From positions 1-19,705 of the forward strand of contig JAFXCN010000003.1 of the NCBI GenBank assembly GCA_017521465.1: a stretch of 19,705 nucleotides of DNA, in the 5' to 3' direction. Of the stretch, positions 2,257 through 15,865 are shown in pieces (within the stretch, counting starts at the first letter, position 1; each line of letters opens with the position of its first letter). The position numbers and the translations under genes are program-made. Origin of the DNA: Clostridia bacterium (lineage in GTDB: Bacteria; Bacillota; Clostridia; TANB77; UBA1234). Under the pieces are notes generated by a model that saw only the letters and a program-made list of their open reading frames with translations, did not search any database and was not told the origin of the DNA.

Positions 2257-2330
2257 TAAAATATGTCAAAACAAAAAAATTTTATGGAAGAGAGGATGCT
2301 TCGGACTGACATACCGAAGCGAACAATGTG

Positions 2331-3011
2331 ATGAAGGTAGCTTTTGCTGACGCTAAGGAAATGACTGCACGGGTGATTGCTGAGTATGCTCAGAAAACCA
2401 TGATCAAGGTTGCTCTCGACAATGTTGTCTTTGACAGGCTGGGTGAAGTGCCTCTTCTGGAGATGCTTATGAACCTGTCAGTTGTCACGAAGGAACATAT
2501 CGAAGGCACCACCTACGACAAGAAGAGTTTCCAAATGGTGATGCGAATCATCAACGGGAAGCTCCTTATGCGTGGACAGGACCTGGTTGAAAGGCCTGAT
2601 GCCTATGCATGGCAGACGAGCAAGGTGGTCAAGGCCAAGAACAAGAAGGCTCTTGGTTTCCATTCGGTGGAAGGTGCTCAGACCTATGCTCAGGTCTTGG
2701 GTACTATTCAGAGCCAGTACGAGAGGGAACTCTTTACTGATCTTCTGGTGAATTGGTCCAAGGACCTGGTTCTCATTCACACTGATCCCGAAGAACGTCA
2801 GGTGATTGAGGTGACGGAAGAGCTGATTATGAGCGGCATTACGGCTGTTCCCAACAGTTACGACATCGAGTGGCCTGCTGAAGGCGCTGACGGTGTCGAA
2901 CTGACGCCCATCAAGATGGGTGATGCGCTCGTGATTGAGCAGTGTTCGTTCGGCCCCGCGTTTTACGTTGTGGGGAAGGATGAGTACGAGCTCACCCATA
3001 TTCCTGCATAA
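2331..3011 (+). CDS. Hypothetical protein encoded in a GC-rich (about 50% GC) island; function unknown
   Basis: 226 aa from the ATG at 2331 (the track ORF starts at the GTG at 2328). Base composition differs sharply from the flanks. No SD is present. The start overlaps the stop of a 15-codon upstream mini-ORF (ATGTGATG). A GC-rich terminator follows. Confidence 0.6.
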   Translation: MKVAFADAKEMTARVIAEYAQKTMIKVALDNVVFDRLGEVPLLEMLMNLSVVTKEHIEGTTYDKKSFQMVMRIINGKLLMRGQDLVERPDAYAWQTSKVVKAKNKKALGFHSVEGAQTYAQVLGTIQSQYERELFTDLLVNWSKDLVLIHTDPEERQVIEVTEELIMSGITAVPNSYDIEWPAEGADGVELTPIKMGDALVIEQCSFGPAFYVVGKDEYELTHIPA

Positions 3012-4952: not shown

Positions 4953-4989
4953 AGATTTTAGTAAGGTTCGCACAAAATTCAAAATTGTG

Positions 4990-5018
4990 TTGACATAATG
5001 AAATAAAGGTGATAGAAT
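4990..5018 (+). promoter_or_regulatory. Strong promoter (TGTGTTGACATAAT ... GTGATAGAAT), divergent from the minus promoter
   Basis: TTGACA at 4990-4995, a 17-nt spacer, then TAGAAT at 5013-5018 with TG at -15/-14. The near-identical architecture recurs at 15774-15802. Confidence 0.65.
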
Positions 5019-5081
5019 GGCGGTAATTTAATAGGTTTACGTATTCTCTTTAGATATGGATAGAGAAAAGGAGGAAACAAA

Positions 5082-5858
5082 ATGGCAAAAGCAACAGAGA
5101 AGCGGCATGGATTTTGGAAGCGATTTATTTCAATTGTAGTAACTATAATATGGTTTCCTTTTTTCCTAGTAGGATTATGGAATATTGTAACTTGGATTGT
5201 GGGCGAACCACTTAAAAGTGATATGATTGAAATTCGAGAAAATGTATTTAATTGGTGCTATGACAATGTGATTATGGAAATTATTCCTGCAGATGAAATC
5301 ACAACACAATCAACAGAAGAAACTGAAGAGTTTGTGGCAATCCAAGAAATTAATTCGACAGAAGAGGATTATTCAGAAACTGACGAAGAGATTGCGATAG
5401 ATGGCATGCGACTTAGGAATATTTCTTCGTATAAAATTACAGAGTACATTGATTTTACAATTCCATATGAATGGACTTTTGGTAAAGTCGAGGTTGGTGA
5501 TACTGCAATGGAAGAATCGATTGCGATAACTAACACTAGAACGACAATGATTATTTCCATGCAGGATATTGAAATGGAAAAAACGTCCGAAGCGTTGAAG
5601 ATACGTAGAGATGCAATGATGTTTGATTTGGAAAACAAGTATCCTAACTATGTGTTTGAAAAAGCGGATTTTATTATCGGTAATGTTGCAGTAATCAAAG
5701 CGACTGCAGATAATAGCGACACGAAGATTTATGTGGCTATTATTCCTGTTCAGAACAAGACGATTATTGTAAATTATTCATTTAATAAAAATGATATTTT
5801 GGAAGGTGAATTGTATTTTACGATTGCAATTGCAGAAATGCTTGAAAGTATTGAATAA
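5082..5858 (+). CDS. Membrane-anchored hypothetical protein (N-in single TM, extracytoplasmic acidic domain), 258 aa
   Basis: RBS AAGGAGG at 5068-5074. Basic N-terminus followed by TM IVVTIIWFPFFLVGLWNIVTWIV. GC moderately above background. Confidence 0.7.
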   Translation: MAKATEKRHGFWKRFISIVVTIIWFPFFLVGLWNIVTWIVGEPLKSDMIEIRENVFNWCYDNVIMEIIPADEITTQSTEETEEFVAIQEINSTEEDYSETDEEIAIDGMRLRNISSYKITEYIDFTIPYEWTFGKVEVGDTAMEESIAITNTRTTMIISMQDIEMEKTSEALKIRRDAMMFDLENKYPNYVFEKADFIIGNVAVIKATADNSDTKIYVAIIPVQNKTIIVNYSFNKNDILEGELYFTIAIAEMLESIE

Positions 5859-5921
5859 GTTTAACATGTTTAAATAGAAAAGGGATGGCTAAGGCAAAGC
5901 CCTCTTGACTAAAAAATAAAT

Positions 5922-5958
5922 GAAGAGGGCTCTTATAGGGCCCTCTTCCCCTTTTTTC
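5922..5958 (+). terminator. Intrinsic terminator with a competing upstream pairing partner (attenuator-like)
   Basis: Stem gaagagggc (5922-5930) / gccctcttc (5940-5948), then CCCTTTTTT. An upstream copy of gccctctt (5899-5906) can alternatively pair with 5923-5930. Confidence 0.55.
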
Positions 5959-5991
5959 ATAAAAAATACTCAGATGAAAGGAGAAAGAAAC

Positions 5992-8900
5992 ATGAAAAAC
6001 TTCACTAAAAAGCTTCTCAGTATCCTGATGGTTGTGATGATGCTTGTCAATTTGATGCCGACGACTGCACTTGCAGCACATACTCACAAGGGTGCTATGT
6101 GTGGTAAGCAGGTTACCACTTATGAGAAAAAAGACAGCTCTTCTCATAAAGTAATTACGCAAAATGAAGAACTTTGTAGCTGTGGACAATTTCTTGGTTA
6201 TATTGATAGAAGAGAAACTACTGCCGCTCACGAGTTTTCTAATTATAAATGCACTAAGTGTGGATACGAGAAGAAGCATACGCATGTTGACGTCATGTGC
6301 GGCAAATCCAAAAGCTGGTATGAAAATATTACTAGCACGAAGCATACGTATGTAACGGCTAACGAAGGCCTTTGTGCATGTGGTGAATTTGTTAAGTATG
6401 TTGATGTGAAAAAGACTACTGCAAATCATACTTTCAAAAATGATAAATGTACTAAGTGTGGTTATAAACGGACGCACGTTCATCAGGGTGCTGCATGTGG
6501 TAAAGCAGTAAGTTGGTATGAAAATATCACTGCAACTACGCACACACTTTACACTGCGAATGAGAATCTTTGCAGTTGTGGAACGAAGATTGGTTACATC
6601 GATGAAAAACGGACTCAGCAAAATCATAGTTTCAATGGTGATGTTTGTAGTGCGTGTGGCTACAAGCGCGAGCATGTGCATAAGGGTGTAGCATGCGGAC
6701 AAGCTATTCGTCGGTACGAAGATATCAACAGTAAGACTCATACGCTTTACACTGCAAATGAAAATCTTTGCAGCTGCGGAGCAATGATTGGTTACATCGA
6801 TGAAAATCGCGTAGCACAGAATCATAATTTTAATGGAGATGTTTGTAGCGATTGTGGATATAAACGTGAACATGTACATAAGGGTGTAGCGTGCGGTAGT
6901 TCTGTTTGGTGGTACGAAGACGTTAATGCCAATACGCATACACTGTATACTGCAAATGAAAATCTCTGCAGTTGCGGAGCAATGATTGGTTATATCGATG
7001 AAAATCGTGTAGTAGAGAATCATAACTTCTTGAGTGGGGATATTTGCAGTGGTTGCAGTTACAAGCGTGAACATGTACACCAAGGTGTAATGTGTGGTAA
7101 AGCAGTAAGTTGGTATCAGAACATTACTGAAACCACGCATACATTGTATACTGCAAATGAAAATCTTTGTAGCTGTGGAGAAATGATTGGCTACATTGAT
7201 GAAAAGCTTACTAAAAATGAACATGATTTTAGTAATGATGAGTGCACTAAGTGTGGCTACAAGCGTGAGCATGTGCATCAGGGCATAGCATGTGGTCAGG
7301 CAATTCGTCGCTATGAAGATATTAATAGTAAAACTCATACGCTTTATACTGCAAACGAAAATCTCTGCAGTTGCGGAGCGATGATTGGTTACATCGATGA
7401 AAATCGTGTAGCACAAAATCATAACTTCAGCGGAGATATCTGCAGTGATTGTGGTTACCAGCGCGAGCACGTGCACCAAGGCGTAGCGTGTGGTAAGTCT
7501 GTGAGCTGGTATCAGAACATCACTGAAACGACTCACACTTTGTATACTGCAAATGAAAATCTTTGTAGTTGTGGTGAAAAGGTCGGCTATATTGATGAAA
7601 AGCTTACTAAAAGTGAACATGCTTTTAGTAATGATAAGTGTACTAAGTGTGGATATGAGCGTGAACATGTGCATCAGGGTGTAGCATGTGGCCAAGCGAT
7701 TCGTCGTTATGAAGACATCAATAGTAAGACTCATACGCTGTATACCGCAAATGAAAATATTTGCAGTTGCGGAGAGATGATTGGCTACATTGATGAAAAT
7801 CGTGTAGCACAAAATCATAACTTCAGTGGTGATATTTGTAGTGATTGCGGATATCAGCGTGAGCATGTGCATAAGGGTGTTGCGTGTGGTAAAGCTGTGA
7901 GCTGGTATCAGAACATTACTGAAATGACTCACACCTTGTATACTGCAAATGAAGAACTTTGTAGCTGTGGTGAAAAACTTGGTTATATCGATGAAAAGCT
8001 TACTAAAAGTGAGCATGCTTTTAGCGATGATAAGTGTACTAAGTGTGGATATGAGCGCGAACATGTGCATCAAGGTGTTGCAAGTGGCAAAGCAATTAGC
8101 CGATACGAAGATATAAATGGTAGCACTCATACACTGTATATCGCAAACGAAAATATTTGTAGTTGTGGAGAGATGATTGGTTACATCGATGAAAATCGAG
8201 TAACTAAAAATCATAATTTCAATGGTGATGTTTGTAGTGATTGTGGATATAAACGTAATCATCAGCATAAAGGTGTAGCATGTGGTCAGGCAATTGTTCG
8301 ATACGAAGACCTCAATGCCAATACTCACACTCTGTATACTGCAAACGAGGAGATTTGTAGTTGCGGAGAGATGATTGGGTATGTTGATGTTAATCGTGTT
8401 GTAAGACCGCATATGTTCGTTCGTGACAAATGTACGGATTGTGGCTATGAACGTAGTCACGTTCATCAGGCGGTAAAGTCTGGACCGCCGCGGACGTATT
8501 ATGAAAAGGTTGACCACAATTATCATAAATGTATTAATGTTTCTGAAAGTCATATTTGTAGTTGTGACTATGTTGTTTCTGAAGGTAAGAAAGTTACTTC
8601 TATTGAAGAACATCTTTTTGTCGAAGGATTTTGTATTTTCTGTAAAGAACCCGAACATATTCATAGCGCTGTGGCTAGTGCAAATAAGGGTACTCGGTAT
8701 GCATATGCAGATGAAGAACAGCATGTTAAGATTACTGTCACCGGTGGTCACTTCTGTTCGTGTGGTGAATTTATGCCGACGGAAGATGGCAACATCATTT
8801 ATACTTATGAAAATCATAAATTTACTGATAAGAAGTGTACTAAGTGTGGATATAATAGTAAAGGTTATATCGAAGTTGCGGTTGATCAAATTATATTTGG

Positions 8901-9564
8901 TGATTTCTCTGATGATGTAAATATTGCAGGCACCGGCGGACAAATTCTGGTAGGTGAACTTCCTATCATCGGTTTTGTTGCTGATGTTCGAGATTTGCTG
9001 GGCAGTAAATCACTCACTGATCTTTTGATTAATGCTGTTGCGTTCTTGCCGTTTGGTGGTTTCTTTAAATATAGTGATGAAGTTGGCGTTACTGTAAAGA
9101 ATGCTGACAAGATTAAGTATACCGATGAAATTGCTGGTGCAGGTAACAAAGTTGATGATTTCATTGAGCATGCTGCAAAAATTAATCTGCGTGATGGCGA
9201 AAAAGCTGCTGAAAGCTTCCGCGATATCGCAAGAGCATCGGATTCTACGTCGGATGCATACAAGAATTTTGATGCCTTCAAAAAAGCTCATGGCCCCGCC
9301 GGCGAAGGTATGGAATGGCATCATATTGTTGAACAAAGTCAGATTAATAAGAGTGGTTTCGATAGTTCTATGATTAATAATGGTAATAATATGATTCCTA
9401 TCGATGAAGCGACTCACAGAAAAATTTCTGGTTATTATAGCCGGAAAGTTCCTGGTACAGATATGTCCTTCAGAGATTGGCTTGCGTACAATGATGTTCC
9501 TTTTGAACAGCAGCAAGAAATCGGTATTAAAATTCTTGAACTTTATGGTATTAAGGTAAAATAA
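5992..9564 (+). CDS. Large secreted Cys/His-rich repeat protein with C-terminal PT-TG-like and HNH/EndoVII (WHH-type) nuclease-like domain; polymorphic-toxin-like (1190 aa)
   Basis: RBS GAAAGGAG at 5976-5983 (8-nt spacing to the ATG). Sec signal MKNFTKKLLSILMVVMMLVNLMPTTALA|A. About 14 units of 66 aa (HxHxGxxCG...THTLYTANENLCSCG...IGYIDE...NHNFxGDxCSDCGYKRE) follow. The C-terminus contains NIAGTGGQILVGELPIIGFVADVRD (TG motif), then EWHHIVEQ...NNMIP...EATHRKISGYY, consistent with an H-N-H catalytic pattern. The track ORF start at 5920 lacks an RBS. Confidence 0.85.
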   Translation: MKNFTKKLLSILMVVMMLVNLMPTTALAAHTHKGAMCGKQVTTYEKKDSSSHKVITQNEELCSCGQFLGYIDRRETTAAHEFSNYKCTKCGYEKKHTHVDVMCGKSKSWYENITSTKHTYVTANEGLCACGEFVKYVDVKKTTANHTFKNDKCTKCGYKRTHVHQGAACGKAVSWYENITATTHTLYTANENLCSCGTKIGYIDEKRTQQNHSFNGDVCSACGYKREHVHKGVACGQAIRRYEDINSKTHTLYTANENLCSCGAMIGYIDENRVAQNHNFNGDVCSDCGYKREHVHKGVACGSSVWWYEDVNANTHTLYTANENLCSCGAMIGYIDENRVVENHNFLSGDICSGCSYKREHVHQGVMCGKAVSWYQNITETTHTLYTANENLCSCGEMIGYIDEKLTKNEHDFSNDECTKCGYKREHVHQGIACGQAIRRYEDINSKTHTLYTANENLCSCGAMIGYIDENRVAQNHNFSGDICSDCGYQREHVHQGVACGKSVSWYQNITETTHTLYTANENLCSCGEKVGYIDEKLTKSEHAFSNDKCTKCGYEREHVHQGVACGQAIRRYEDINSKTHTLYTANENICSCGEMIGYIDENRVAQNHNFSGDICSDCGYQREHVHKGVACGKAVSWYQNITEMTHTLYTANEELCSCGEKLGYIDEKLTKSEHAFSDDKCTKCGYEREHVHQGVASGKAISRYEDINGSTHTLYIANENICSCGEMIGYIDENRVTKNHNFNGDVCSDCGYKRNHQHKGVACGQAIVRYEDLNANTHTLYTANEEICSCGEMIGYVDVNRVVRPHMFVRDKCTDCGYERSHVHQAVKSGPPRTYYEKVDHNYHKCINVSESHICSCDYVVSEGKKVTSIEEHLFVEGFCIFCKEPEHIHSAVASANKGTRYAYADEEQHVKITVTGGHFCSCGEFMPTEDGNIIYTYENHKFTDKKCTKCGYNSKGYIEVAVDQIIFGDFSDDVNIAGTGGQILVGELPIIGFVADVRDLLGSKSLTDLLINAVAFLPFGGFFKYSDEVGVTVKNADKIKYTDEIAGAGNKVDDFIEHAAKINLRDGEKAAESFRDIARASDSTSDAYKNFDAFKKAHGPAGEGMEWHHIVEQSQINKSGFDSSMINNGNNMIPIDEATHRKISGYYSRKVPGTDMSFRDWLAYNDVPFEQQQEIGIKILELYGIKVK
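6079..8860 (+). repeat. In-frame tandem coding repeats, 198-bp unit with 396-bp higher-order (two alternating subtypes) periodicity
   Basis: Units 4, 7 and 9 (subtype QAIRRYEDINSKTHT...NRVAQNHNFSGDICSDCGY) alternate with units 6, 8 and 10 (subtype KAVSWYQNITETTHT...KLTKSEHAFSNDKCTKCGY). Repeat proteins are near-identical, but DNA shows many synonymous differences. Confidence 0.85.
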
Positions 9565-9584
9565 TTTTTGCTAATTTAAATTTG

Positions 9585-9620
9585 CAGGTGTAAGTGAAAA
9601 CTTACACCTGTTTTTGTTTT
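9585..9620 (+). terminator. Intrinsic terminator of the large gene
   Basis: Stem caggtgtaag/cttacacctg with loop tgaaaa and a TTTTT run. Confidence 0.8.
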
Positions 9621-9657
9621 TAAAAATAAAAAAGAGATATGTGGTAAACATATCTCT
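9621..9657 (-). terminator. Intrinsic terminator for the minus-strand SLH lipoprotein gene
   Basis: Stem agagatatg/catatctct (9633-9641/9649-9657). On the - strand it is followed by a tttttatttttaa run. Confidence 0.65.
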
Positions 9658-9743
9658 GAATATATATGGTCGCTTTTAGCAACAATTATGCTATCAATTA
9701 GTATTATAGCTTAAGTACTGCTAAAAGCTCATGATTTGCCAAG

Positions 9744-10973
9744 TTATATTTCTGCTGGTCTTACCCAATCTAAGTTGTAGAATAATTGACAAACTTGAGC
9801 TCTTGTAAGTGATCCTTGTGGATTAAATGTAAGTTTATCATCATTTCCATTTGTTATTCCAAAGTTGTATGCATCAACAATATGTTCTTTATATACTTCT
9901 GAAATTTGAGCGTTATCTGGAATATCCTCTAATTTAATTCCTTTAGGTGTAGCATTTAAGAAGTTTGCTTGTGATGCAAGATACATTGCTGCTACAGCAG
10001 CTTCTCTTGTTATAGGTACATTATAATTTTCAGGAGTAATATCTCCATTTGAGATTATATATCCCATATCAACACATTCATAAATAGCAATTCCAGCCCA
10101 ATATCCATTTTCATCAGTACCAGTTGCACGATTTTTAGCACGAGCTAAAATTTGACAAAATTGAGCGATTGTTAATGTTCCTTCTGGATTAAATTTGTTA
10201 TCGCCAACACCTGCTACTAATCCCCCTTGTGCTAAAGCTGTTACAGCTTTGTGATACCATTTATCTTCTGGTACATCAGTGAAAGTAGGTGCTGTTACAA
10301 CTGGAGTTACAGGAGTTTCTTCATCTTCTGTAACAGAAGAACTTCCGGCAGATTTTGTAGCTTTAAATTTGAAAACTGTATCTGGATTAACATCTGTACT
10401 CATTTTTAATGCTTCAATTGTAAGAAGATTATTTTCTATAGTAATTCCGTCAGTTGGCCCAGAAAGTTGAATAACATCGTATGGGAAACTAAATTTTAAA
10501 ACAATTGCAAATTGTTCTAAAAATGCTTTCATGTCTTCTTCAGTCATTTCATTTTGTGATTCAGAATCTGTAGGTAGCATAGCTTCTGCATTTATTGTTT
10601 CTTTTGCGTTAGAGATTGTAAAGATAAAATTGCCCTCTGAATCTTTTTCAATAATAAAATTGCTAGATTCTGTATCCATTTCAGAATTATCACTTAAAAG
10701 CTTCGTTAATTCATTAATAGTTTCAAATTCTTGAGTTTGCACTTCGCCATAATATGTTTTACCGTTATAGTTAAAAGATGTTTCGTATTCAAATTTTTGT
10801 CCGTCAGACATTTGCTCTAATGTTGCAATACCTTGCTCAGTAAGTCCAGTAGATAAAACTAGTGTACCGCTGCAATCCTCGTTAATATTAACTTCAAAAA
10901 TTGTACCCATACAGCCAGTAAGAGTAGCACAAAGAAGTACTAACATAAATAATAATGACATAGTTTTTTTCAT
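9744..10973 (-). CDS. Lipoprotein with two C-terminal SLH (S-layer homology) domains, 409 aa
   Basis: Lipobox LTGC. SLH-like segments FTDVPEDKWYHKAVTALAQGGLVAGVGDNKFNPEGTLTIAQ and DIPDNAQISEVYKEHIVDAYNFGITNG...LTRAQ. Strong RBS (rc of 10976-10985, TAGGAGGTAA). Confidence 0.8.
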   Translation of the reverse strand: MKKTMSLLFMLVLLCATLTGCMGTIFEVNINEDCSGTLVLSTGLTEQGIATLEQMSDGQKFEYETSFNYNGKTYYGEVQTQEFETINELTKLLSDNSEMDTESSNFIIEKDSEGNFIFTISNAKETINAEAMLPTDSESQNEMTEEDMKAFLEQFAIVLKFSFPYDVIQLSGPTDGITIENNLLTIEALKMSTDVNPDTVFKFKATKSAGSSSVTEDEETPVTPVVTAPTFTDVPEDKWYHKAVTALAQGGLVAGVGDNKFNPEGTLTIAQFCQILARAKNRATGTDENGYWAGIAIYECVDMGYIISNGDITPENYNVPITREAAVAAMYLASQANFLNATPKGIKLEDIPDNAQISEVYKEHIVDAYNFGITNGNDDKLTFNPQGSLTRAQVCQLFYNLDWVRPAEI

Positions 10974-11180
10974 ATTTATTACCTCCTAGATAAGATTTTT
11001 AATGTTTACAAATGAATTATCAATATTACTCAAAATGAGTAAGCGATTTTCAATAGAAAACATTATAAAATATGTCTTTTTTAGTGTACCATATAAATAT
11101 AAAGTAAGTAAATATTTTTCATATGCAAAATCATACAAATGTGATAGGATATTTTTATTAAAACCAAAGAGGTGATTTGC

Positions 11181-11702
11181 TTGAAATGTATGTTTGTTTC
11201 TGATGTGCATGGAAGTGTGGAGCGATTAGAAGAATGCATTAAAATATTTGAAGTAGAAAATGCTGATAAACTTGTTTTTCTTGGTGATACTGGTTCGCAA
11301 ATGGATAGGACTAGCAATGAGCAAATAGCAGAAATTTTAAATAAAATAAAAGATAAAGTACAGCTAATTAGAGGAAATTGCGATACAACAGATTTTGAAG
11401 AATTGCTAGAATTAAATTTGCTAAACATGGATAATCTTTATATGAATGGGATATTTGTAACTATAACACATGGACATAATTATAATTGTTATGACTTGCC
11501 AAGTTATTGCGGTGAAATATTTATTCAAGGTCACACACATGTGCCGATGCTTCAAAAATCTAAAAATGTAATTTTAGCAAATCCTGGTTCTGTTACGAAA
11601 CCAAGAGGTGTTGATTTAAGATGTTATATTATAATTGATGAAGAAACAATAACACTAAAAACATTAGATGGGAAACTTGTTAATTCAATAAAAATAAAGT
11701 AA
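11181..11702 (+). CDS. Metallophosphoesterase, YfcE/MJ0936-like family
   Basis: Motifs DVHG, GD, GNCD, HGH and GHTH. Start is ambiguous between GTG 11172, TTG 11181 and ATG 11190. RBS AAAGAGGTGA at 11166-11175. Confidence 0.8.
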   Translation: MKCMFVSDVHGSVERLEECIKIFEVENADKLVFLGDTGSQMDRTSNEQIAEILNKIKDKVQLIRGNCDTTDFEELLELNLLNMDNLYMNGIFVTITHGHNYNCYDLPSYCGEIFIQGHTHVPMLQKSKNVILANPGSVTKPRGVDLRCYIIIDEETITLKTLDGKLVNSIKIK

Positions 11703-15748: not shown

Positions 15749-15773
15749 TATTCATTAATTGAAAGACAATGTG

Positions 15774-15802
15774 TTGACATAATTTTAAAAACGTGATAGA
15801 AT
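15774..15802 (+). promoter_or_regulatory. Strong promoter (TGTGTTGACATAAT ... GTGATAGAAT), near-twin of the 4990-5018 promoter
   Basis: TTGACA at 15774-15779, a 17-nt spacer, then TAGAAT at 15797-15802 with TG at -15/-14. Confidence 0.65.
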
Positions 15803-15865
15803 GCACATGAATAATAAAGGTTTTCGAATATCTCAAGCTATATAAAGAGAAATGGAGGACAAAAT

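Follow-up and report, generated by a model that had tools for sequence, protein, structure and literature searches.

A predicted polymorphic toxin with a histidine/cysteine-rich repeat stalk and a distant candidate immunity gene on a Clostridia contig

Toxin gene and its repeat stalk

The window analysed here is the whole 19,705-nucleotide stretch of contig JAFXCN010000003.1 from a Clostridia bacterium (GenBank assembly GCA_017521465.1). Its main feature is a gene for a large secreted repeat protein which, together with an upstream gene for a membrane-anchored accessory protein and a gene for a small immunity protein farther downstream, probably constitutes a three-gene polymorphic toxin system of Gram-positive type, with a likely DNase tip and an immunity gene at a distance from the toxin gene (Table 1). 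The locus had previously been read from its sequence alone (hereafter the original prediction). The toxin gene is preceded by a ribosome-binding site (GGAG about 10 nt 5' of the ATG), and its product is deposited at NCBI as hypothetical protein MBR4110279.1 of a Clostridia metagenome-assembled genome. In line with the original prediction, the N-terminal sequence MKNFTKKLLSILMVVMMLVNLMPTTALA/A can be read as a Sec signal peptide, with a hydropathy maximum at residues 8–30. It is followed by 14 repeats of 66 residues, a linker of about 130 residues and a C-terminal domain of 106 residues (referred to below as the tip). The nonrepetitive C-terminal part thus comprises residues 955–1190, or about 236 residues; the C-terminal region of about 330 residues described earlier exists, with the two degenerate last repeats counted into that figure.

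An identical 1190-residue toxin gene was called in three independent metagenome assemblies (L085–L087), and the window corresponds to one European Nucleotide Archive metagenome contig of this group, to which it is identical across a 15,858-base overlap; an assembly artefact can thus be ruled out for the repeat array. The GC content of the toxin gene is 39.4%, compared with roughly 26–36% for its neighbours, in agreement with the value of about 40% reported earlier, and GC at the third codon position is raised as well. Since the toxin gene (0.31), the accessory gene (0.29) and the immunity gene (0.25) show the three highest third-position values, with 0.12–0.21 in the other genes measured, they share a common compositional signature, which would fit a shared foreign origin.

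According to Tandem Repeats Finder, the DNA of the stalk has a period of 198 nt (9.6 copies) and a super-period of 396 nt. At the protein level it contains exactly 14 units (starting at residues 30, 96, ..., 889), of which 12 are canonical and the last two degenerate, so that the earlier count of about 14 is confirmed. Units 3–12 alternate between two subtypes, with identities of up to 95%. Within the close family (43 three-repeat segments and 28 single repeats) His1, His3, His23, Cys33, Cys35, His51, Cys58 and Cys61 of the repeat are invariant and the fifth cysteine, at position 8, is not conserved; across 803 repeats from 150 proteins, His23, Cys33, Cys35, His51, Cys58 and Cys61 are conserved at 92–99.5%. 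No Pfam or NCBIfam model matched the 66-residue repeat, consistent with its earlier description as an apparently undescribed Cys-rich repeat. Matches of the whole protein to pre-PUA_NIP7, R3H_PUS7L, POLO_box and PADLOC PbeD were rejected as additive artefacts of summing 14 repeats, because no single stretch was significant and the scores add up over the repeats. A word-indexed search with the repeat returned only seven relatives; a repeat profile searched against 1.84 billion representative proteins found 364 proteins at E ≤ 1e-3 and 27 at E ≤ 1e-30. The repeat-bearing relatives reach about 2,500 residues, with many repeats. As the repeat also occurs together with SH3b, SLH, Listeria-Bacteroides repeat, Cu_amine_oxidN1, Y_Y_Y and class-3 lipase domains, it is a general extracellular module of Clostridia that is not exclusive to toxins.

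An AlphaFold2 model of repeats 3–5, built from 20 sequences, has a mean predicted local distance difference test score (pLDDT) of 91.7 and a predicted template-modelling score of 0.47. Each repeat in the model consists of three strands of 12–13 residues followed by a short CxxC knuckle. The strand directions would bring His1, His3, Cys33 and Cys35 together at one end of the unit and His23, His51, Cys58 and Cys61 at the other, from which we infer two putative Cys2His2 metal sites per repeat. The modelled repeats most likely stack head to tail into an elongated rod. The number of repeats varies among strains: a toxin of a related strain (L091) has 12 repeats and 1058 residues, and the difference of 132 residues corresponds to one block of two units. 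This variation was compared at positions 1033–4209 of L091 and 4180–7234 of L092 against the toxin gene of the window; in L091, genes for an LRR_5 protein and a methyltransferase are inserted between the toxin and SLH genes. An antisense open reading frame (ORF) of 1041 residues runs across the repeat array (5818–8943, reverse strand), and relatives have similar ones; it was rejected as a gene and regarded as a by-product of the codon composition of the repeats.

Pre-toxin linker and C-terminal domain

The linker contains two moderately hydrophobic (I/L)PxxG segments, GELPIIGFVADVRD and AFLPFGGFFKYSDEV, with hydropathy peaks of about 1.5. It had been likened to PT-TG, an assignment that we abandon: Pfam PT-TG (PF14449) gave no match to the last 241 residues of the toxin at E ≤ 1, nor to seven linker sequences of the family at E ≤ 10. 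In one protein (P0156), this stalk and linker are followed by an EndoU_bacteria domain (E = 7e-22), and in another (P0179) by an AHH domain (E = 3e-16). The stalk-associated linker is also present in P0005, and the combination of stalk and linker ends in unassigned tails in several other proteins. Conversely, a visibly similar linker segment precedes the HH-N-H tip in two RHS proteins (P0004 and P0024). The HH-N-H tip itself is found in 12 of 150 repeat-bearing representatives. Different tips are exchanged on one scaffold, which is the modularity that defines polymorphic toxins. Four metagenome proteins (P0066, P0068, P0069 and P0070) have a signal peptide, three to four repeats and the linker, and end 23 residues later (...ARAVVIRKDEA) with no tip; P0067 and P0086 carry an unassigned tail of 68 residues after the linker. 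Proteins of these two types may be tip-less or truncated cassettes, or may have very small tips.

The C-terminal domain contains the motifs MEWHHIVEQ, NNMIP and EATHRKISGYY, which hold His1110, His1111, Asn1133 and His1142. A homology search with the last 241 residues found 65 proteins, in most of which only the last ~100 residues of the query were aligned; many of these homologous segments form the end of an RHS or YD-shell protein, and in one case a PT-HINT domain precedes the match. The recurrence of the tip at the ends of RHS and PT-HINT proteins, together with the EndoU and AHH tips on the stalk, bears out the polymorphic-toxin architecture of the original prediction, and the tip appears to be a genuine polymorphic-toxin domain. 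A scan of one genome per species gave 187 tip loci, mostly from Clostridia, with others from Bacteroidota, Spirochaetes, Planctomycetes and Patescibacteria; in every one of the 80 loci kept from these, the tip ends the ORF. The deposited names seen at tip loci are 'hypothetical protein' or generic RHS labels.

The consensus of the family is GFxSFxxxKxxxGSAGxGxxWHHIVEQSQIxKSGFDxxxIxNxxNxIxxxxxxHxKISGYYSS...VRDWLAGQSFExQYxFG. His1110, His1111, Glu1114, Asn1133, Arg1161, a Gln and a Gly are invariant and His1142 is at least 90% conserved, so that the HH/N/H residues pointed out earlier are those the family preserves. The tryptophan Trp1109 is not invariant and is replaced by Tyr, Leu, Ile or Val in some members. 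Moreover, none of the 43 family members scanned matched the WHH (PF14414), AHH (PF14412) or SHH models at E ≤ 10. The earlier assignment to a WHH-type domain is consequently not upheld, and the tip belongs to an unannotated family outside WHH as Pfam defines it. Pfam and NCBIfam scans of the toxin C-terminus matched no toxin family. The only recurrent weak Pfam matches of the tip were to DUF2380 (16 of 43 members) and HNH_2 (7 of 43), with a best E value of 1e-3 for each; those to DUF2380 span the HH-N-H region and all fall below the Pfam cut-off. DUF2380 is the toxin family of Myxococcus SitA6 (PMC12077181), and nuclease activity has been demonstrated for one of its members (PMC6091211).

The AlphaFold2 model of the tip has a pLDDT of 94.9 and a β-β-α core, as the original prediction had anticipated for this region. 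A strand (residues 33–37 of the model) that ends in the His-His pair is followed by two short helices, a second strand (60–64) directly after the invariant Asn and a helix (65–76) bearing the His. This corresponds to the HNH/His-Me finger layout, with His-His at the end of strand 1, Asn at strand 2 and His in the following helix. The Asn-to-His spacing in colicins E7 and E9 is nine residues, the same as in the tip. A Foldseek search against the PDB gave nothing significant, the top match being the colicin E7 DNase at E = 0.95. Sequences of solved structures were searched with the single sequence and with a profile, and neither found a match. On the basis of the model and the conserved residues, the tip is most likely an HNH-like (His-Me finger) DNase, a nuclease call that is not statistically secured. 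The motif GFxSFxxxKKA in residues 1085–1100 (YKNFDAFKKAHG, 9244–9290) resembles FKSFDDFRKAV of the colicin E9 DNase domain; this resemblance is probably due to chance. A literature search on HHIVEQ and DUF2019 returned nothing relevant.

Immunity gene, accessory gene and transcription signals

In three relatives on long contigs, the toxin gene is directly followed by a homologous ORF of 112–123 residues, one of which matches DUF2019 and HEAT. Of 84 toxin ORFs in the loci retrieved, at least 70 are directly followed by a DUF2019-like ORF of about 110–130 residues, and in most of the others such an ORF and the toxin stop codon overlap. Among ten further members of this immunity family, five match DUF2019 (PF09450); the scores in two loci (25.3 bits in L002 and 36.6 bits in L069) are above the cut-off and those of four more members are below it. 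The window toxin has four closest relatives (L005–L008), and in each of them the order is accessory gene, immunity gene, toxin gene, with the immunity-like ORF directly upstream of the toxin. Three of these toxins share the signal peptide, repeats, linker and tip at about 50% identity, and the fourth adds an SH3b-like domain.

In the window, the interval between the accessory and toxin genes (5858–5992) contains no immunity-like ORF. On the other side of the toxin gene, positions 9565–9743 hold terminator-like hairpins on both strands and no ORF of 30 residues or more, the only ORFs being of 21–26 residues; beyond them lies a convergent gene whose product is an SLH-domain protein and carries a lipobox. 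The original prediction was right on this downstream gap and on the convergent gene. A candidate for the partner gene that it took to be absent was nevertheless found, 6.3 kb downstream of the toxin gene. Its product matches the hidden Markov model (HMM) of the immunity family with E = 1.9e-13 and an hhalign probability of 98%; the test is not circular, because the sequences that went into the HMM were 66 downstream ORFs, all from other loci. In BLASTP alignments the product is 59–61% identical to the upstream ORFs of L005–L007 and 38% identical to that of L008 (55–57% over the full MAFFT alignment), and its divergence from L005–L007 is about the same as that of the toxin tips (59–61%). The Pfam DUF2019 profile itself gave no direct match to the window protein, and tblastn searches of the window with three single immunity proteins found nothing (E > 0.5); the family profile alone detected the gene. 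With a DUF2019-like member identified in this way, the apparent paradox of a toxin without immunity dissolves, and what appears odd about the locus is the position of the immunity gene, not its absence. A size-based candidate at 11081–11428 (reverse strand) was rejected since its translation is of low complexity and does not align.

The immunity gene has a GGAGG 7 nt upstream of its GTG start codon and its own terminator-like hairpin. The protein, deposited as hypothetical protein MBR4110285.1, has no signal peptide and is helical, HEAT-like and related to DUF2019. No homologue of the predicted lipoprotein encoded just upstream of it was seen near the toxin genes of L005–L008. Elsewhere in the family, immunity-like ORFs occur in arrays: L061 (144–2410) has four, interleaved with short toxin-tip fragments, and L076 (551–5034) has six. 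Such arrays of orphan tips and immunity cassettes are characteristic of polymorphic toxin loci.

The accessory gene and the toxin gene appear to form an operon behind a promoter with a −35 element TTGACA, a 17-nt spacer and an extended −10 element TGATAGAAT (scan score of 11/12 with the TG extension). The 25 specified bases of its core occur at only one other place in the window, in front of the immunity gene; none would be expected from shuffled sequences. This identity suggests either co-regulation or copying of the promoter during relocation of the immunity gene. Behind the two cores, the 5' leaders and ribosome-binding regions are similar as well. The accessory protein has a hydropathy maximum at residues 14–36 and matched nothing in Pfam, NCBIfam or PADLOC. 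A homologue (28–45% identity) is encoded upstream of the immunity–toxin pair in all four closest relatives. Because positively charged residues precede its single transmembrane helix, the domain of about 200 residues probably faces outward.

Between the accessory and toxin genes lies a 140-nt leader (5856–5995) with two hairpins, the second of which is terminator-like. It folds at −42.6 kcal/mol (z = −5.2 relative to shuffled sequences) and is 97% identical in strains L091 and L092, whose accessory proteins are 87–91% identical to that of the window. A promoter scan found no promoter-like site between the leader hairpin and the toxin ATG. Given a terminator-like hairpin in front of the gene and no promoter-like site after it, we hypothesize that transcription of the toxin may depend on read-through, while the immunity protein may be made from its own copy of the promoter. 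The octamer GCCCTCTT occurs twice in the leader (at about 5898–5905 and in the 3' arm of the terminator), and either copy could pair with AAGAGGGC at 5922–5929, a predicted arrangement that is attenuator-like. Rfam identified no RNA family anywhere in the window.

Apart from these genes, the window contains an ORF at 2328–3011 that encodes 227 residues from a GTG codon and was called as 180 residues at approximately 2469–3011 in the metagenome. This stretch has a GC content of about 52% (52.6% over 2501–3000) in a genome of about 30% GC. The ORF has no Pfam or PADLOC match, and Rfam found nothing on either strand; by its composition it looks like a recently acquired foreign gene.

Table 1. Features of the toxin locus and of the immunity region in the window
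Feature	Position	Strand	Remarks
Promoter core of accessory–toxin operon	4986–5019	+	TGTGTTGACATAAT-N9-GTGATAGAATG
Accessory gene, 258 residues	5082–5858	+	N-terminal transmembrane helix and domain of ~200 residues; from hydropathy and conserved neighbourhood
Hairpin of 12 bp with U-tract, intrinsic-terminator-like	5922–5957	+	35 nt before toxin start; terminator scan
Toxin ORF, 1190 residues	5992–9564	+	
Sec-type signal peptide, residues 1–28	5992–6075	+	Predicted cleavage ALA/A; from sequence and hydropathy
Stalk of 14 tandem 66-residue repeats, residues 30–954	6079–8853	+	Predicted to be rod-like
Pre-toxin linker, residues 955–1084	8854–9243	+	Conserved with the stalk
C-terminal toxin domain (tip), residues 1085–1190 (106 residues)	9244–9561	+	His1110, His1111, Glu1114, Asn1133, His1142, Arg1161
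Terminator-like hairpin of toxin gene	9584–9621	+	Terminator scan
Convergent gene for SLH-domain protein with lipobox	9744–10973	−	Family scan and sequence
Predicted lipoprotein, 331 residues	14709–15704	+	Lipobox LIGC; no family match; just upstream of immunity gene
Promoter core of immunity gene	15770–15803	+	All 25 specified bases identical to 4986–5019
Candidate cognate immunity gene, 117 residues	15866–16219	+	GTG start; family profile, hhalign and BLASTP

Interpretation and comparison with known systems

The toxin would leave the cell through the Sec pathway, with cleavage of the signal peptide, and its repeats would fold into an extracellular rod with the linker and tip at its distal end. 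Each repeat would form a three-stranded β-unit, which a Cys2His2 metal site at either end would probably clamp together. The tip would then enter the cytoplasm of a target bacterium, which it would have to reach because the immunity protein has no signal peptide, and would most likely cut DNA through the His1110/His1111–Asn1133–His1142 site. The small cytoplasmic DUF2019-like protein would protect sibling cells. The membrane-anchored accessory protein probably assists in export, tethering or self-protection, and could also act as a chaperone; any such role is a guess.

Several points weigh against this interpretation. The immunity gene does not adjoin the toxin gene, and the two are paired by family membership, similar divergence and the promoter core that they have in common. 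The toxin has no recognizable wall anchor, and its entry into a target is hypothetical. A terminator-like hairpin separates the promoter from the toxin gene, the expression of which is only predicted. The Cys2His2 pairing in the repeats was deduced from strand topology alone. Finally, an hhalign comparison of the tip family with the colicin E9 DNase aligned only 15 residues, a FKSFDDFRKAV-like segment outside the HNH motif, with a probability of 5.8%.

The alternative closest to the proposed system is a polymorphic toxin as described, the tip of which is an RNase or another His-dependent enzyme whose HH-N-H residues mimic an HNH site. It would account for the lack of a significant match to any HNH family or structure, for the invariant Glu1114 and Arg1161 and the conserved Gln, which lie outside the classical HNH motif, and for an insert between the strands that is longer than in colicin DNases; we regard it as unlikely. 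We consider it very improbable that the gene encodes a nuclease or adhesin, secreted or at the surface, that acts on extracellular DNA, in biofilms or in nutrient scavenging and is not an interbacterial toxin, with the DUF2019-like genes as unrelated neighbours. Such a protein would be compatible with a Sec signal and no dedicated secretion system, with the occurrence of the repeat in surface proteins that have SLH, SH3b, Listeria-Bacteroides repeat or lipase domains, and with the absence of an adjoining immunity gene in this strain. However, it would leave unexplained the fusion of the tip family to RHS and PT-HINT toxin modules, the presence of one small cytoplasmic protein family behind so many toxin ORFs across phyla, the other toxin tips on the stalk and the operon promoter core in front of the distal immunity gene. 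An orphan toxin without immunity, the producer of which is protected only by exporting it, is suggested by the lack of a sizeable ORF directly downstream and by the failure of tblastn, and is scarcely credible in view of a clear family member in the profile searches that closely resembles the toxin-adjacent ORFs of the nearest relatives and is equipped with a ribosome-binding site and a terminator as well as a copy of the operon promoter.

The polymorphic toxin system with a likely DNase tip thus being our preferred interpretation, it may be extended to a bolder proposal that we advance tentatively and with considerable doubt. The His4Cys4 repeat would be an undescribed extracellular, metal-clamped domain that forms a rod of tens of nanometres; with the membrane-anchored partner and the hydrophobic linker, it would provide a distinct Sec-dependent route that carries exchangeable nuclease tips into other Gram-positive cells, with the toxin gated by read-through of the leader terminator and the immunity gene freely transcribed.

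The pairing of an HHIVEQ tip with a DUF2019-like immunity protein occurs in at least 187 species-representative loci, and annotation of such genes is now possible. The His/Cys repeat, which gut and rumen Clostridia encode in at least 364 representative proteins and which is associated with several toxin tips, would be a good structural target. The locus also illustrates that the lack of a neighbouring immunity gene does little to establish a toxin as an orphan, as the partner could be recognized only with a profile built from relatives. The gene order, the relocated immunity gene and the leader terminator make the system a tractable case of uncoupling the expression of toxin and immunity.

Among known systems, Bacillus subtilis WapA and the architectures in a recent catalogue of Gram-positive repeat-stalk polymorphic toxins (PMC13483458) likewise combine a signal peptide, a repetitive stalk, a pre-toxin segment, an exchangeable nuclease tip and a small specific immunity protein. 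The window system differs from them in that its stalk is built from a His/Cys repeat that lacks a Pfam model instead of RHS/YD, choline-binding, cohesin or Big modules, in that the toxin has no recognizable wall-binding domain, in the location of the immunity gene, which is upstream (relatives) or at a separate site (window) and not directly downstream, and in the presence of a conserved membrane-anchored partner gene. The closest known systems also include the G5-E repeats of SasG/Aap and other G5 domains. For the tip, colicins E7 and E9 with Im7 and Im9 share the HH...N...H arrangement on a strand–strand–helix core and a small helical cytoplasmic immunity protein. The Pfam WHH and AHH families are similar in being short C-terminal tips with a conserved xHH tripeptide followed by Asn and His, and AHH occupies the tip position on a stalk of the window type in P0179; the window tip differs from both in its HHIVEQ signature and in a C-terminal helical extension (Arg1161, Gln, Gly). 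SitA6/DUF2380 (PF09533) is the most frequent weak Pfam match of the tip and a toxin family in which one member is reported to be a nuclease (PMC6091211); in contrast to the window system, its toxins are lipoproteins of outer-membrane exchange with a double-CXXCG immunity family (PMC12077181). The C-terminal domain of the type VI secretion system effector TseN (PDB entry 9j9w), an experimentally shown DNase (PMC12574953), is 13% identical to the tip with no match at the sequence level; TseN is delivered by the type VI secretion system in Proteobacteria and its immunity protein has an α/β-fold. Compared with these systems, the locus differs in the stalk module, the unannotated tip family, the DUF2019-like immunity family, the immunity-first gene order (with the gene relocated in the window) and the conserved membrane-anchored partner.

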